Shown in pieces: positions 3,702 to 32,515 of a stretch of 33,914 nt of DNA (its first letter is position 1; every line of letters starts with the position of its first letter). The DNA is from Bacteroidales bacterium (lineage in GTDB: Bacteria; Bacteroidota; Bacteroidia; Bacteroidales; WCHB1-69): positions 1 through 33,914 of the forward strand of contig JAISTU010000127.1 in NCBI GenBank assembly GCA_031272415.1, given 5' to 3'. Made by a program: the position numbers and the translations under genes. The notes under the pieces are model-generated. The model was not told the origin of the DNA. It searched no databases and saw nothing but the letters and a program-made list of their open reading frames with translations.

Positions 3702-3795
3702 TTTTAGAACATTTTTATTCCAAAATGCAAAAAAAAATCTACACTCTACACTCTGCACTCTACACTCTGAAAAAAAAGTTTTTAATTTTTAATTG
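3702..3795 (+). repeat. Dispersed motif copy 2 followed by heptamer tracts
   Basis: ttttagaacatttttattccaaaatgcaaaaaaaaa, then about four (ctacact)-like units and ttttaat x2. Confidence 0.75.
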
Positions 3796-11231: not shown

Positions 11232-12035
11232 CTATTCTTCCGTTGCAACGGGTGTTTCCTCTGCTTGAGCGGGAGTTTCTTCCGTTGTTGTTTCTGTCGG
11301 GTTTGGCTCAACTGCTACTTGCTCAACAGGTTCAGCAACAGGTTCAGCAACTTCTTGAACATCTTCTACTGCAACTTGTGTTGCAACTTCTTGATTTTCA
11401 GATTGTTGTGCTGCTTCTTCTTCCTGTTGTTGTTTGAGTCGTTCTTGTTGGCGTTTTTCGGCTTCTCTTGCAGATTCTTCGGCTTCTTTTGCAGCCTTTT
11501 CGGCTTCTCTGGCGGCTTTTTCTGCTTCTCTTTGGGCTTTTTCTTGTGCTGCCTTTTCTGCTTCTGCTGCCAAAATAGCCTGACGTTTTTCATTTATTAA
11601 CGTCGCTCTGGCTTCTTTTACCTTTGCCTCAGCCTCTAAACGTTTTTTCTTATTGGCTTTGTCGGCGTTAAGAATTTCCGTCCTGTTTTCACGGATTTTT
11701 CTTGCCTTTTCTTCTTTCCAAGCAGCGAATTTTTCTTCCGCTTGTTCTGCCGAAAAAGCACCTCTTTTAACGCCTCCCATTAAGTGTTTTTTTAGGTAAA
11801 CACCCTCCCGTTTGAGTATCATTCTTGCCGTGTCAGTAGGCTGCGCACCTACATTCAACCAATAAAATGCTCTCTCAAAATCCAAATTGATACCAATTGG
11901 ATGCGTTAGCGGATTGTATGTACCTATCTTTTCTATGAACCGTCCGTCCCGAGGTGCACGACCATCCGCAATTACTACATGATAAAAAGGTTGTCCCTTT
12001 TTCCCAAATCTTTGTAATCTAATTCTTACAGACAT
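11232..12035 (-). CDS. rpsP: 30S ribosomal protein S16 with long charged/acidic C-terminal extension
   Basis: [42 protein letters not shown]; [11 protein letters not shown]. Confidence 0.97.
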
Positions 12036-12083
12036 AATCTAAATATTATATATTCTTTTTTTATTAAAAAATTTACAGATTTG

Positions 12084-12094
12084 CAAAGATACAC
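12084..12094 (-). promoter_or_regulatory. -7 promoter element for the rpsP-rimM operon
   Basis: Reverse complement GTGTATCTTTG. Confidence 0.8.
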
Positions 12095-12102
12095 TTTTTT
12101 GT

Positions 12103-12299
12103 CAATTAAAAATTAAAAATTAAAAATTAAGAGTTGAAAGTTGAAAGTTGAGAGAAAATATAAAAACGGCGCATGCACTGTCTTTACTTGTATATATTTA
12201 TTTGATTATCAATGTTTTTTTGTACATTTTCAAAAAAATCATTCTCAATTCTCAATTTTCATTTTTTAGAACAAATTTCTCCCAAAATGCAAAAAAAAA
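12103..12299. repeat. Inverted heptamer tracts plus dispersed motif copy 4
   Basis: (aattaaa)x3-4, (agttgaa)x2-3 at 12103-12154; attctca-attctca-attttca at 12241-12262; ttttagaacaaatttctcccaaaatgcaaaaaaaaa at 12264-12299. Confidence 0.75.
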
Positions 12300-24079: not shown

Positions 24080-24667
24080 TTAAAAATATCTTCGTGTATG
24101 TTGTTGATATTCAATATATTTATTGCCAAATTTGCGAATTAGGAATTTTTCTTCCCGCAATATTTGAAAATGAATGCCAATAAATGAGCAAAGGGCTAAT
24201 ATTATGATAATTACGTTTGGAAAGACAAGCATTATGCCGGCAAAATACATATCCATAAACAGAAATATGGGGTTGCGAGAGTAAGCAAATGCACCTGTGG
24301 TTATCAATTCATTGCTTGTTTTTTCGTCAATGCCAATACGCCAACTTTTTCCAAATGAAAGCAATGCCCATAAAAATATTGCTAATCCACTGTAACACAG
24401 AATGATTCCTACATATTTCAGCCAAGCAAAATACACCACAAAATCCGTTAGAAATGAAAATTGAAGCACTGCCAAAATTATCAACACATTCCACAGCAAC
24501 AGAAAAGGTGCTAATATGTTTTCCAACATCTTTTCGAGCATTGTGCCTTTGCTTGTTCCTATTGACCAGACTTTTACGCTCTGACAATAAAGCATAACCG
24601 TTCTGCCGATAAACAGAACATTGAACAGCACAAGACTTGTTAAAATTAAAATATTTGTTGCAGCCAT
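24080..24667 (-). CDS. Isoprenylcysteine carboxyl methyltransferase / PEMT-family membrane protein
   Basis: GKSWRIGID...LITTGAFAYSRNPIF...REEKFL...FG..Y.EY...TRRY. Confidence 0.88.
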   Translation of the reverse strand: MAATNILILTSLVLFNVLFIGRTVMLYCQSVKVWSIGTSKGTMLEKMLENILAPFLLLWNVLIILAVLQFSFLTDFVVYFAWLKYVGIILCYSGLAIFLWALLSFGKSWRIGIDEKTSNELITTGAFAYSRNPIFLFMDMYFAGIMLVFPNVIIIILALCSFIGIHFQILREEKFLIRKFGNKYIEYQQHTRRYF

Positions 24668-24668
24668 T

Positions 24669-24935
24669 TTATTGTTTTTTCCAACGCTCTAAACGTCTGA
24701 AACCCCGTGTAAAGAGCCACGCTTTAAGTTTATTATGACCGTTTTTAATCATTGCTTGTCGGCAAAATTCTTGAAATTCATCTACCGTCATTCCTTCCCC
24801 TGCAAGCACTCCGTTTTGATAGCAATACATGCAAAATTTCTCACTTTTACTACCGTCTGCATTTGTGCCTTCGTTATTTGTGCGTTTGTCTAACGGCATT
24901 CCACAACTTTGGCAAAACTTTTTTTTATTATCCAT
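24669..24935 (-). CDS. Zinc-ribbon domain protein
   Basis: KFCQSCGMPL...GTNADGSKSEKFCMYCYQNG...LERWK; start taken as ATG 24935 because a promoter lies at 24983. Confidence 0.85.
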   Translation of the reverse strand: MDNKKKFCQSCGMPLDKRTNNEGTNADGSKSEKFCMYCYQNGVLAGEGMTVDEFQEFCRQAMIKNGHNKLKAWLFTRGFRRLERWKKQ

Positions 24936-24982
24936 TTTGAATTGATTTTTTATGCCCACTTGGGCGGTTAATAATAACTCTG

Positions 24983-24993
24983 CAAAGATACAC
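24983..24993 (-). promoter_or_regulatory. -7 promoter element
   Basis: Reverse complement GTGTATCTTTG with (aattaaa/aattaag)n tract at 25003-25034. Confidence 0.78.
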
Positions 24994-25082
24994 CTTTTCG
25001 TCAATTAAAAATTAAAAATTAAGAATTAAGAGAGATGCATATTTTATTCTTTTTGGGGTCAATTATTATCATCGCATATAGG

Positions 25083-25134
25083 TTTATAATTGACCATAAG
25101 TATACTTTTTTTTGTATTTATGGTCAGTTATAAA
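25083..25134. repeat. 52-bp palindrome copy 1
   Basis: tttataattgaccataagt-N14-atttatggtcagttataaa. Confidence 0.95.
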
Positions 25135-25292
25135 AACAAGTTATTAAGTATAATTCTTTGATTTACAATACAATATGTTTATTACGAACTATGTCAAAAA
25201 TCATAATAAAAGTGAGATGTAAAACCTACCTCGTTTTGCTAACATATTGAAATGTGGAGCGTTTTTTCAGATTATTAGCATCTCTTGCAAGA

Positions 25293-25344
25293 TTTATAAT
25301 TGACCATAAGTATACTTTTTTTGGCACTTATGGTCAGTTATAAA
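25293..25344. repeat. 52-bp palindrome copy 2
   Basis: tttataattgaccataagt-N14-acttatggtcagttataaa. Confidence 0.95.
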
Positions 25345-25505
25345 AACAAGTTATTAAGTATAATCATTTGATTTACAATGTAATATGATTATTACGAACT
25401 ACGTCAAATTTATAATAAAAGTGAGATATAAACCCTACCTCGTTTTGCTAACATATTGAAATGTGGAGAGTTTTTATTTTCAGATTATTATTATCGCTTG
25501 CAAGA

Positions 25506-25557
25506 TTTATAATTGACCATAAGTATACTTTTTTTGGCACTTATGGTCAATTATAAA
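25506..25557. repeat. 52-bp palindrome copy 3 (perfect 19-bp arms; contains the ATPase stop codon)
   Basis: tttataattgaccataagt-atactttttttggc-acttatggtcaattataaa; the TAA at 25551-25553 lies in the right arm. Confidence 0.97.
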
Positions 25558-26972
25558 AATATGTCATCAAGCGTAATTTCCTTTTGTACAATGCTATAAC
25601 GCTTATTATGAACTACTCCAAATGTTGTAATAAAAGTGAGATGTAAAGCCTTCTTTGTTTTGCTAACATACTCAAATGCAGCGAGTTTGTTCCTAAGGTT
25701 GGCTTCATACGCTTTTGAAATGATAAATGGCGAGTTAGAAAATTTCATTTCGCAAATGTTTATCACGCCGTCTTTGCGGTCTATCAGCAAATCTATTTGG
25801 CAACCATCGTAATTATCCGTTTTGTCTGTTGCCCATGCTGACACGCCGGATTGGACGCCGGAGATACCAAGTGTGCGTTTTATTTCGCTAACATGCTGTA
25901 AAACAAGCGATTCGAAGGCATATCCTGCCCACGTATTCCGCAACGGAGTATTGAGGCTGTTTGTCCAAAAATTCTCATCTTTGCTATTATAATTCTCCAA
26001 AAAGTTGAAATAAAATAGGGTATAGGCATCAAGCAACTGATAGAGGCGGTCTCGCTTTTTTTTGTGCAAAGCATTGTAAGAACGGATAAAACCACAACTT
26101 TCAAGGTTAATCAGAATTTCGGTCAGTTCTCTGCCACTTTTTTTGGTAATCTCGCTAATTTCGCCACGTGTTAAACCTTTGTTTTTGAGGCTCAAAGCAG
26201 AAACTGTTGCCACATAATTTTCCGATTTTCTAAACAGTGAGGCATATAGGTTTGAAAATTCGTTCTTCAATTTAGCGTTCTGCTTAAAGCACAGATTATC
26301 AATATTTTGCGACAAACTTAATCCTTTTTCAAACAAACTAAGATAATATGGAATTCCCCCAAAAATCATATATGCTTCGGCAATTTCCTGCCTGCCAAGC
26401 ATGATTTTATGCGACAAAAAATATTGTTCTGTTTCGCTTATATTGAAAGGTTGCAAGAAAAGCGTGGCAGTCAATCGATTATGTAAACCGCCATGATTGT
26501 TGATAATTTTGTTCGTAATCCACGAAGTCGCTGAACCGCAAATTATCAGCATAATATCATCTCTTCCACAAGCCCACCCGTTCCAAAAATGTTCCAATGC
26601 TGTTAAAAAGCCTGCTCTCGGAGTGTCTAACCACGAAATTTCATCAATAAAGACCACCTTTCGCTTTGTGCGAGACTTTTTCAACTGTGCAATAAGTTGC
26701 TCGAAGGCGTACAACCAGTTTTTTGCGACCGGCAATTGCTTGTTAAAACAGCGGTTGAGCGTCAAATTAAAGTTGGCAAGTTGCGTTTTAGTGTCTGTGT
26801 TTGCCAATCCTGCTAAGTCAAATATCAGCCTGTTGCCAAATAACTGTCTGATTAAAAACGTTTTACCAACACGGCGCCTCCCACATACCGCTATAAATTC
26901 TGCATTTTCCGAATTATAAAGGTCAGTCAATTTTTGCGTTTCGCTTTGTCTTCCAATAATTTTCTTGTCCAT
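25551..26972 (-). CDS. ATP-binding protein: archaeal-type AAA ATPase, winged helix and DUF234/PD-(D/E)XK-like C-terminus
   Basis: Walker A GRRRVGKT, Walker B VVFIDE, ICGSATSW, wHTH GLTRGEISEIT...LINLESCGFI, WAGYAFE, QIDLLIDR...INICEMKF. Confidence 0.92.
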   Translation of the reverse strand: MDKKIIGRQSETQKLTDLYNSENAEFIAVCGRRRVGKTFLIRQLFGNRLIFDLAGLANTDTKTQLANFNLTLNRCFNKQLPVAKNWLYAFEQLIAQLKKSRTKRKVVFIDEISWLDTPRAGFLTALEHFWNGWACGRDDIMLIICGSATSWITNKIINNHGGLHNRLTATLFLQPFNISETEQYFLSHKIMLGRQEIAEAYMIFGGIPYYLSLFEKGLSLSQNIDNLCFKQNAKLKNEFSNLYASLFRKSENYVATVSALSLKNKGLTRGEISEITKKSGRELTEILINLESCGFIRSYNALHKKKRDRLYQLLDAYTLFYFNFLENYNSKDENFWTNSLNTPLRNTWAGYAFESLVLQHVSEIKRTLGISGVQSGVSAWATDKTDNYDGCQIDLLIDRKDGVINICEMKFSNSPFIISKAYEANLRNKLAAFEYVSKTKKALHLTFITTFGVVHNKRYSIVQKEITLDDIFL

Positions 26973-26980
26973 ACATCTCT

Positions 26981-27032
26981 TTTATAATTGACCATAAGTA
27001 TATAAAAAATAGCACTTATGGTCAGATATAAC
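26981..27032. repeat. 52-bp palindrome copy 4, 8 nt upstream of the ATPase start codon
   Basis: tttataattgaccataagt-atataaaaaatagc-acttatggtcagatataac; same 14-nt spacer length as copies 1-3. Confidence 0.95.
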
Positions 27033-27088
27033 TATTTTTTTACGCATAGACAACGTAATTTTTGCATTTTTATTGTTTTTACAAAATC

Positions 27089-27123
27089 ATTTTTTTGCAT
27101 CCTTTGGGGAAAAGTTTTTTTAA
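27089..27123 (-). repeat. Dispersed motif copy 5 (degenerate)
   Basis: Reverse complement aaaaaacttttccccaaaggatgcaaaaaaa. Confidence 0.5.
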
Positions 27124-27149
27124 TTGAAAATTATATAACAAATTGATAC

Positions 27150-27962
27150 TCAAACAGTTACAATCTTCATTCCGATTTGCTTCCTTTCTACTGATTTTAC
27201 GATGCTGATACTCAATTGATAAAGCAAAAAAACAGGAACACTTACTAAAAGGAGTGTAAAAATATCAGTTGTAGGAGTAATGATGGCGGAAAGGATCAAA
27301 ATCAATACCAAAGCATGTTTGCGATATTTTTTGAGTAGAGAGACTTTTAAAACCCCAATTTTTGCCAAAATCCAAGCCAAAACAGGCAATTCAAACAATA
27401 TGCCTAACAACAACGTAATCAATAAAAAAGTATCAATATACGAATTGATGGTAAACATATTTTCCACTGTTTCACTGATTTGATAATTGGCAAGGAAGCG
27501 AAACGAAAACGGAAAAACAACAAAATAACTCAATAATGCCCCCAAAAAAAAGAACAAAAATGACATAAAAATCAAATATGTCGTATATTTTTTCTCTTTT
27601 GTATAAAGTGCGGGCGAAATAAAGCCGTAAAGTTGGTACACAATATAAGGCGCTGTCAGCAAAAGTGCCGTATAAAGCGTAACTTTTATGTGTATCAAAA
27701 ATTGTGAAGTAAGTTGCGTACTTACCAAATGAAAAGCCGAATTGTCCGAAAATGCAAAATGAAAAGAAAAATATTCCCCCAATTGCCTGAGCAGCCTAAA
27801 TGTAACAAAATCAGCACTTTGAGGTGCAAAAATTACGGCAAAAATAGGTGTTTTGAAAAAAAATGCAACTATCGTAATCGCAAATACAACAACGATAATG
27901 CGAAAAAGCATCTTTCGCAATACCTCTACATGCCCCCAAAAAGTCAGCAGATTACTGCTCAT
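27150..27962 (-). CDS. tatC: Twin-arginine translocase subunit TatC
   Basis: TFWGHVEVLR, FISPALY..EKK, FELPV, SAIITPTTD; start taken as ATG 27962. Confidence 0.95.
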   Translation of the reverse strand: MSSNLLTFWGHVEVLRKMLFRIIVVVFAITIVAFFFKTPIFAVIFAPQSADFVTFRLLRQLGEYFSFHFAFSDNSAFHLVSTQLTSQFLIHIKVTLYTALLLTAPYIVYQLYGFISPALYTKEKKYTTYLIFMSFLFFFLGALLSYFVVFPFSFRFLANYQISETVENMFTINSYIDTFLLITLLLGILFELPVLAWILAKIGVLKVSLLKKYRKHALVLILILSAIITPTTDIFTLLLVSVPVFLLYQLSISIVKSVERKQIGMKIVTV

Positions 27963-32319: not shown

Positions 32320-32510
32320 CAATAAAAAATTAAAAATTAAAAAAAAAAAATTAAAAATTGAGAATTGAGAATTAAGAATTGAGAATTATTTTTTTTGCAT
32401 TTTGGGATAAAAACGTTCTAAAAAATGTTTTTTCCCGTCGAAACCACGATTTTTTAATAAGATTTAAATATCTACACTTTACACTCTAAAAATCTACACT
32501 CTACACTCTA
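32320..32510. repeat. Heptamer tracts plus dispersed motif copy 6 (minus strand, 32389-32424)
   Basis: (aattaaa)n, (aattgag)x4, ttttttttgcattttgggataaaaacgttctaaaa, then (ctacact)-like tracts at 32471-32510. Confidence 0.75.
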
Positions 32511-32515
32511 AAATA

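Follow-up and report, generated by a model that had tools for sequence, protein, structure and literature searches.

Why do the palindromes at one bacterial locus stay almost unchanged while the DNA between them falls apart? The locus lies in a Bacteroidales genome (assembly GCA_031272415.1, contig JAISTU010000127.1; the 33,914 nucleotides (nt) analysed are called the window here), where an intact gene for a predicted ATPase-nuclease, P0001, is followed by a tandem array made of copies of its own 3′ end, each closed by the same palindrome. We find that the array arose when the 3′ junction of this gene was duplicated in tandem, that the coding remnants in it decay neutrally and that the palindromes change much more slowly than these relics. 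Because a fourth palindrome precedes the ATG, the gene is bracketed by the element. The window palindromes belong to a conserved, gene-specific and often multi-copy dyad element of the gene family, and the palindrome is probably a working DNA site.

How is the array built? Tandem Repeats Finder places it at 25062–25692, with a period of 210, 3.0 copies, 84% matches, 3% indels and a score of 831, and a repeat search gave start-to-start distances of 210 and 213 nt. Read in the orientation of the gene, on the minus strand, each copy terminates in a 52-nt palindrome. Copy 1 is the live 3′ end of the ATPase gene; copies 2 and 3 are pseudogenised gene tails with stops and frameshifts, which share about 77% identity with the gene and 91% between themselves. 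A preliminary description of the locus had proposed the same two spacings, had taken the intervening segments for decayed copies of the adjacent gene's end, closer to each other than to the gene, and had judged the palindromes far better conserved than these segments. Measurement bore out all four statements. Its inventory of palindromes held for the three of the array (P1–P3) and missed the fourth, P0. The 5′ edge of the duplicated unit inside the gene is uncertain and falls somewhere from about 25692 to about 25720. At the far end, the short stretch beyond P3 is either the beginning of a further unit or ancestral flank within the duplicated segment (Table 1). On one side of the array is the stop codon of the gene, on the other the next gene's promoter region. 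Its G+C content is 0.27–0.29 versus 0.36–0.41 for the gene, and G+C content shows no sign of a foreign origin of the locus.

Table 1. Positions in the window of the gene, the palindromes and the decayed gene tails.
Feature	Position	Strand	Description
P0, upstream palindrome	26980..27032	−	Ends 8 nt before the ATG; fold −19.8 kcal/mol, z −4.4
P0001 gene	25551..26972	−	Intact, 473 amino acids; predicted ORC/Cdc6/STAND-like AAA+ ATPase with winged helix and C-terminal PD-(D/E)xK-type domain
P1	25506..25557	−	Perfect 19-bp stem, 14-nt A-rich loop; ends unit 1; fold −23.7 kcal/mol, z −5.0
Relic 2	25345..25505	−	Pseudogenised copy of about the last 45–55 gene codons; stops, frameshifts
P2	25293..25344	−	1 of 52 positions different from P1
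Relic 1	25135..25292	−	A further pseudogenised tail; identity 91% with relic 2 and about 78% with the gene
P3, distal copy	25083..25134	−	3 differences from P2; stem slightly weakened; fold −16.9 kcal/mol
21-nt stretch after P3	25062..25082	−	Resembles the first 21 nt after P1 and P2

The two relics carry the record of their own decay. Aligned with the gene tail, relic 2 gives 118 matches, 36 mismatches and 13 gap columns and relic 1 gives 116 matches, 33 mismatches and 20 gap columns; the relics aligned with each other give 143 matches, 14 mismatches and 5 gap columns. Differences from the gene are spread evenly over the three codon positions (18/16/17 for relic 2 and 17/17/18 for relic 1; 3/5/6 between the relics). 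Two functional alleles would diverge mainly at third positions, and the even spread thus indicates neutral decay. The relics correspond to gene residues beyond the catalytic motif and have lost residues that are invariant across 34 homologues. When the C-termini of homologues were compared with the relic DNA, the adjacent gene ranked second of 120 for relic 1 and fifth of 101 for relic 2, its scores were close to those of a relative with 90% identity, and no other member was clearly better. A gene-tail relic is absent upstream of P0 (score 8.5 versus a shuffle mean of 10.7).

The palindromes behave differently from the relics that they enclose. Those of the array consist of 19-nt arms around a 14-nt A-rich loop and differ from one another at only 1–4 of 52 positions, with pairwise differences among P1–P3 of 1/38, 2/38 and 1/38 in the arms and 0–2 of 14 in the loop. 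P1 and P2 differ at a single position of 52, whereas the adjoining DNA has accumulated 36 mismatches and 13 gap columns in 167; at 25% divergence, one difference or none in 38 arm positions has a probability of 2.4e-4. The 18-nt arm, with up to three mismatches, occurs eight times in the window (four palindromes with two arms each) and 0.09 times on average in shuffled sequence, none of 100 shuffles reaching eight. In the whole 2.34-Mb genome, eight of the nine arm matches with at most two mismatches fall at this locus. The second arm of P0 is identical to that of P1–P3 and its first arm has three differences; its loop is T-rich in the gene's orientation, unlike the A-rich loops downstream. 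P0 probably overlaps the gene's promoter, and at the other end of the gene the stop codon falls within the first arm of P1. The hairpins would be stable on either strand (−16.9 to −23.7 kcal/mol, z-scores of −4.4 to −5.9, with 0 of 200 shuffles as stable). We considered intrinsic terminators and rejected them: none of the four palindromes was called as one, the region's only two predictions fall within the gene, on the opposite strand, no T-run follows any of the four, the loops measure 14 nt and the stems are A/T-rich. A permissive Rfam search of 24500–27500 returned four chance-level matches, all far under gathering scores.

The array is also supported by contigs of two sequencing runs, in both of which it is broken into short pieces. 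Contigs of the probable source-sample run tile it at a depth of about 104–110, equal to that of the flanking genome. One contig assembled in a separate study's run covers 25342–25627 with one base changed; the junction of relic 2, palindrome and gene is therefore present in a second sample and is not an assembly artefact of this genome. Another contig of the second run, at a depth of about 52 (roughly ten-fold higher), carries the palindrome with one loop base fewer; of the 30 letters shown per side, those on its gene side resemble a diverged gene tail and those on the other side are unlike the relics. No joint that removes the gene or alters the number of units was found in the contigs of both runs, which are blind to rare forms.

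What does the bracketed gene encode? Residues 8–212 of P0001 match Pfam ATPase_2 (8.8e-13), AAA_14 and related AAA domains, and the whole protein is a full-length match to the PADLOC family PDC-S27 (PDLC04984, E 5.2e-195, residues 2–472 on profile positions 2–473 of 474). An AlphaFold2 model made from 34 homologues (predicted local distance difference test score, pLDDT, 83.2) has as its best Foldseek matches the archaeal AAA+ ATPases 2qen and 2fna, followed by ORC/Cdc6 and STAND NTPases, in all of which an AAA+ domain is followed by a winged helix. Because this part of the model resembles ORC/Cdc6 and 2qen/2fna, the protein plausibly binds DNA. Within its C-terminal 120 residues, E354, D394 and E408-x-K410 are invariant in the 34 homologues; we read them as a probable PD-(D/E)xK nuclease motif, the domain being assigned from this motif within whole-protein searches. 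PMC12988326 describes PDC-S27 as an ATPase fused to the PD-(D/E)xK superfamily, an unvalidated candidate defence gene that ranks among the commonest of its kind, and DUF234/COG1672 is listed within the PD-(D/E)xK superfamily in PMC3424549. The window gene fits the PDC-S27 profile and its ATPase–PD-(D/E)xK architecture; it differs in that PDC-S27, in PMC12988326, is defined by the protein only, whereas the window gene also has palindromes. The literature searched, supplementary files aside, mentions no palindrome for PDC-S27, DUF234 or ATPase_2 genes.

P0001 has homologues at 90% identity (P0002) and at 69–76% (P0003–P0017). Its own 2.34-Mb genome holds no second copy, and the sole other protein-level match there is a relic (E 3e-7, two stops). 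Around the P0001 gene stand housekeeping genes (tatC, a pfkB-family kinase, RNase Y, an RND pump, sigma-54, rimM, S16 and sufB), a zinc-ribbon/methyltransferase operon lies downstream of the array, and domain scans of 28 open reading frames (ORFs) of the window found no recombinase, integrase or cas gene among them.

Is the palindrome peculiar to this locus? We gathered 160 loci (80 metagenomic and 80 genomic) with homologues 47–63% identical to P0001. In the 130 nt before the gene, 129 of the 149 usable homologues have an inverted repeat of at least 10 pairs with at most one mismatch, compared with 38 of 523 other ORFs of these loci and 3 of 149 shuffles; for at least 14 pairs the counts are 69/149, 7/523 and 0/149. 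The pair GCCAWA...TWTGGC occurs in 82 of 149 upstream regions versus 19 of 12,247 control windows. The family half-site profile approximates TATAATTnGCCAAATCT, so that sequence is conserved and not symmetry alone, and the arms in the window match this profile except for a G-to-A change that is mirrored in the opposite arm. The element consists of two inverted half-sites around an A/T-rich spacer of 10–20 nt and lies mostly on or just upstream of the gene's promoter. The Bacteroidetes −7 box has the motif TAnnTTTG, and at many loci, read by eye, a match to it is found in the palindrome loop or second arm or just downstream. Among 100 palindromes of at least 12 pairs, the inner arms form 40 sequence clusters and the symmetry is kept.

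Comparison of close homologues gives the extent of the conserved DNA. In pairs at least 75% identical, DNA similarity reaches 85–125 nt upstream of the ATG in 626 of 852 pairs and ends at most 10 nt from the stop codon in 754 of 906, counts in which the pairs are not independent. Mismatches within the stems were G-T 18, A-C 14 and other 25 in 85 upstream palindromes, and G-T 10, A-C 8 and other 6 in 32 downstream palindromes. This lack of a G-T bias on either strand favours a double-stranded DNA site over an RNA hairpin.

Extra copies of the element, on the upstream or the downstream side, occur at between a fifth and a third of loci. Where the flank was long enough to judge (84 loci), a single palindrome is present at 59 and more than one at 25: one on either side of the gene (10 loci), two upstream (10), two upstream and one downstream (2), two on each side (1) or three upstream (2). 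At 29 of 144 loci a repeat is common to both flanks of one gene, with scores above the 99th percentile of non-cognate pairs. Two loci carry abutting arrays directly upstream of the homologous gene with a period of 52, four palindromes at L047:1442–1649 and three at L038:2652–2821; both hold a canonical −7-like box solely in the last copy, and neither contains relic DNA. Nine of 20 spacings between neighbouring palindromes equal 52, the others being 53–65, 75.5 and 162, and 18 of the 20 fall within 0.2 turn of whole 10.5-bp helical turns; the window's 210 and 213 correspond to 20.0 and 20.3 turns. Two features of an operator or iteron-type array, sequence-conserved dyad half-sites at the promoter and repeats in helical phase (period 52–65), are found in the family.

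In one gut subgroup the gene and its repeats behave as a unit. There a 115-nt direct repeat, composed of two hairpins, stands on both sides of the gene, its upstream copy following the last few bases of a coding sequence, and a 1.7-kb segment of repeat, gene and repeat moves as one. Loci L163 and L149 are 88.9% identical from outer repeat end to outer repeat end, and their flanks are without translated similarity. In four genomes the subgroup repeat is found at the gene's two flanks, one of these genomes having a further weak partial match on another contig. Of 30 loci of relatives that share the downstream neighbour, 4 carry the gene and the repeats; of the other 26, 25 are readable and have neither gene nor repeat, and one is cut at a contig end. 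One of the gene-less loci has a 15-nt chance-level match elsewhere. Direct reading of the sequence revealed no target-site duplication at the ends of the window unit or of L163/L149. Of the marks of an insertion sequence or transposon, palindromic ends and, in the one subgroup, unit-like movement were found; a match to a transposase family and a target duplication were not seen.

The distribution of the gene is patchy. Within the same taxonomic family, matches occur in 64 of 152 genomes (the window's genome, G000, included) and in 11 of 22 genera, with up to 10 per genome. The numbers of up to 10 ATPase matches per genome come from G146, G149 and others of genus g9, versus one in the window's genome. 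The window's genus is represented by a single genome in the collection. The best identity to P0001 is 54% within its own taxonomic family versus 63% in other families. At 19 same-family loci with tatC homologues, one of them the second copy of the window's genome, none of the window's neighbours lies within 1.5 kb.

Several loci of relatives contain other fragments of the gene. L176 (2666–5560) has a truncated paralogue, of which the C-terminal 228 amino acids remain, then hicA/hicB, then an intact palindrome-flanked gene; a 75-nt copy of the truncated paralogue's tail stands behind the downstream palindrome of the intact gene, and a 2.1-kb segment comprising hicAB and the cassette lies between direct repeats of the resident gene's 3′ end. 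At L052 the last 28 nt of the coding sequence and the downstream palindrome are repeated upstream; in L052 and the L149 group together, the last 8–28 nt of a coding sequence and a palindrome precede the gene. Short N-terminal pieces lie downstream of the gene at L140 and L099, and the C-terminal fragment at the edge of L261 may be another full gene. L167 (1328–3838), compared with its close relative L086, has an extra 2.5-kb segment with a 563-amino-acid ORF immediately outside the cassette's upstream repeat, which suggests a local hot spot for insertions.

What is the mechanism by which the palindromes persist? The explanation that we favour, and to which we give about an even chance, is that a tandem duplication of an ordinary kind took place and that, of its products, only the palindromes are maintained, as cis-acting elements that are probably binding sites for the encoded protein. 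The duplicated segment comprises the final ~135–160 nt of the coding region together with the 52-nt palindrome and roughly 20 nt of flanking DNA. Copy 1 still serves as the gene's end, and copies 2 and 3 are dead DNA drifting neutrally toward A+T. The half-sites are putative double-stranded DNA binding sites for the ORC/Cdc6-like ATPase, the cassette's only product: P0 may serve autoregulation at the promoter, and P1–P3 may be additional cooperative or titrating sites at the other end of the cassette. The relic DNA would be a passenger that incidentally fixes the spacing of the palindromes. In three separate steps we infer that a protein binds the palindrome, that P0001 itself is this binder and that having additional copies makes a difference. 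The gene's own product suggests itself because the element travels with the gene, varies between cassettes yet stays symmetric, and is absent elsewhere in the genome.

A number of observations weigh against this explanation. P3 differs from P2 at 3 of 52 positions and the relics from each other at 14 of 157 plus gaps, about the same rate, so the distal copy may be unconstrained; the near-identity of P1 and P2 could stem from gene conversion instead of selection. A self-search of each locus with its own protein found window-like tandem 3′ relics in none of 158 loci and none of the 27 same-taxonomic-family loci searched (2 of 29 were left out for internal stops), which argues that the arrangement itself is not under recurrent selection. 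In total, the relic array is found in 0 of 185 other loci. Only 25 of 84 loci have more than one palindrome, so extra copies are not required, and only 13 of these 25 have a downstream copy. The regular spacing carries little weight and is no more than suggestive, since the loci are related to one another and the palindrome itself measures 52 nt. A canonical −7 box could not be placed in P0, which lies 8 nt from the ATG versus a family median of 44 nt, and the identity of the palindrome-binding factor is a matter of pure inference.

Could the array then be a one-off neutral duplication whose extra copies have no function? We regard this, the chief alternative, as somewhat unlikely. Under such an account the palindromes, being short, perfectly repeated and able to form hairpins, would have been kept alike through gene conversion or template switching that involved P1 and P0, and the relics, being less similar, would not be convertible. 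Palindromes are hot spots of slippage and template switching, the relics are clearly non-functional, and both the absence of the relic array from the other homologous loci and the decay of P3 at about the relic rate fit. The loop of P0 is distinct while its arms match, so that conversion would be confined to the downstream copies. The same palindrome is moreover kept beside a diverged allele in another organism or strain, multi-copy palindromes recur in the 25 of 84 relatives, and the array junction is stable in the second sample, all of which count against a neutral accident. A different history, turnover of cassettes, makes the relics the tails of an earlier allele or paralogue displaced by recombination at the palindrome, the scar being duplicated later. 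The discrete palindrome-bounded unit of L163/L149, the presence of gene and repeats at 4 of the 30 loci sharing the neighbour and of neither at 25 of the other 26, the truncated paralogue and 75-nt tail copy behind the palindrome of L176, the coding-sequence ends with a palindrome upstream of the gene in L052 and the L149 group, and the close match of P1 to P2 despite a gene–relic divergence of about 23% are all consistent with turnover. The gene–relic differences, however, show no excess at third positions, as expected from turnover only if nearly all the divergence were neutral decay of the relics; both relics share one 5′ boundary, so at most one event formed a scar; and there is no relic upstream of P0. 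The preliminary description had offered scars of an allele replacing a paralogue, to be recognised by relics that match a different paralogue better, and the data do not go that way: the codon-position spread is even and gives the idea no positive support, and none of 120 homologues is a clearly better fit for the relics than P0001 and the relative with 90% identity. Turnover is in our view improbable here; at L176 an exchange of this sort did take place.

Alternatively, the palindromes may be the recombination ends of a small mobile cassette, moved by its own ATPase-nuclease or by a host enzyme, with the relic array a by-product of repeated 3′ integrations, aborted or tandem. Although compatible with the favoured explanation, this is quite unlikely. 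The 1.7-kb repeat–gene–repeat units in unrelated contexts, the empty sites without a repeat, the patchy and multi-copy gene family (64 of 152 genomes), the position of the window gene alone among housekeeping genes and its nearest protein relatives in other taxonomic families all point to mobility; the missing target-site duplication at the ends of the window unit and of L163/L149, the missing transposase or integrase family match and the abutting arrays of three to four copies upstream of a promoter, untypical of recombination sites, point away from it. The contigs show no excision joint, rare forms being beyond what they can show. Two related possibilities were rejected. Inversion of the flip/flop type between P0 and P1 does not agree with loop ends that keep their orientation or with the co-oriented upstream and downstream loops of other loci, and a dif/Xer-type site was discarded by eye, the spacer being at least 14 nt where such sites have 6–8.

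Roles at the level of RNA are the least supported reading and highly improbable. The hairpins would either terminate or insulate transcription before the zinc-ribbon/methyltransferase operon or delimit ~210-nt antitoxin RNAs of type III kind, and their stability on either strand and the place of the array between the stop codon and the next gene's promoter region would suit such roles. None is followed by a T-run or called terminator-like, and 14-nt loops are long for terminators. The family's stem mismatches lack a wobble bias on either strand, the half-sites are conserved in sequence beyond what pairing requires, the arrays of relatives lie upstream of the promoter, the segments between the hairpins are decaying and no Rfam family matches. 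The preliminary description had allowed the array a function either as binding sites or as a hairpin-delimited RNA; the phased, relic-free arrays of relatives lend support to the former, whereas the downstream position, the decay, the lack of G-U bias and the Rfam result count against the latter.

The favoured explanation, sites bound by the neighbouring gene's own product, has parallels in known systems. Plasmid Rep iterons and operators, and the archaeal origin recognition box (ORB) repeats beside orc1/cdc6, place an initiator gene next to its own binding sites. The window resembles them in its predicted winged-helix, ORC/Cdc6-like AAA+ protein beside putative site arrays, in inverted half-sites on the gene's own promoter, in A/T-rich spacers and in spacing near whole helical turns. 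It differs in that the locus is chromosomal with no replication function indicated, that the protein has a predicted PD-(D/E)xK nuclease domain and that the extra sites lie downstream, separated by dead coding DNA. Tandem 3′-terminal fragments behind an intact gene also recall the orphan C-terminal modules of Rhs/CdiA. Those orphan toxin tips are usually intact, paired with immunity genes and functionally divergent, whereas the fragments in the window are 45–55 codons long, broken, neutrally decayed copies of the same tail.

Other likenesses are looser. Integron attC sites and chromosomal arrays of the Vibrio cholerae repeat (VCR) type are, like the elements of this family, imperfect palindromes at the 3′ end of single promoter-proximal genes, on both gene sides and in varied contexts; here the upstream palindrome carries the gene's own promoter and the "cassettes" between palindromes are copies of one gene tail. 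An integron cassette was rejected, the arms failing by eye the GTTRRRY/RYYYAAC core and the 33.9-kb window holding no integrase. Type III toxin–antitoxin loci (ToxI/ToxN) share tandem repeats beside a potentially toxic nuclease gene. Repeats of the ToxI type are about 36 nt long, upstream, well conserved and processed by a ToxN-family RNase. We rejected such a system, since the window unit is 210 nt, downstream and decaying, the protein is of the ATPase_2/PDC-S27 and not the ToxN type, and no Rfam family matches. Palindromic repeats at a regular period also suggest clustered regularly interspaced short palindromic repeats (CRISPR); this candidate was dismissed on account of "spacers" of about 160 nt that are 91% identical to each other and homologous to the gene, of only three repeats plus one across the gene, and of the absence of cas genes from the 28 ORFs scanned.

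Some further features of the window and its genome were recorded. An A/T-rich element of about 55 nt with AATTAAA repeats lies at 24981–25036, and also at 12082–12133 and about 32321–32388; it adjoins a string whose reverse complement fits the Bacteroidetes −7 box, and the copy at 24981–25036 is probably the promoter region of the zinc-ribbon gene. The element recurs on at least six contigs of the genome, with contig depths of 17,734 and 5,888 in the two runs. The heptamer TCTACAC forms short tandem repeats at 3738–3768 and 32465–32513, both intergenic. A 21/42-nt tandem repeat (11442–11543) falls within an unusually long ORF (267 amino acids, 11232..12035, minus strand) with a ribosomal protein S16 domain. 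The second tatC-like gene of the genome (G000:C216:1887–2702, L253) is 49% identical to that of the window and has an in-frame TGA.

What does the locus say about the family? A more far-reaching proposal, unlikely as a whole, is that ATPase-nucleases of the PDC-S27 type are self-contained cassettes of a protein and its own DNA site. The protein would assemble on phased 52-nt dyads that are placed on its promoter, in many cases bracket the gene and travel along with it between genomes; the sites could act simultaneously as autorepressor operator, as a mark of self that shields the locus from its own nuclease and as the ends where the cassette is excised, copied or exchanged, and the relic array would be a fossil of end-directed events. 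Should the extra copies prove neutral, what remains is a commonplace decayed duplication next to a cis-element of interest. The palindrome seems to be a hitherto undescribed trait of a common defence candidate, and the array itself an ordinary decayed tandem duplication. The array is nonetheless a natural experiment, in which the palindromes stayed nearly intact while the adjoining DNA lost about a quarter of its identity. The palindrome marks the limits of a unit that differs between genomes, and a gene-specific dyad in front of most family members offers a cheap and concrete experimental handle on PDC-S27.

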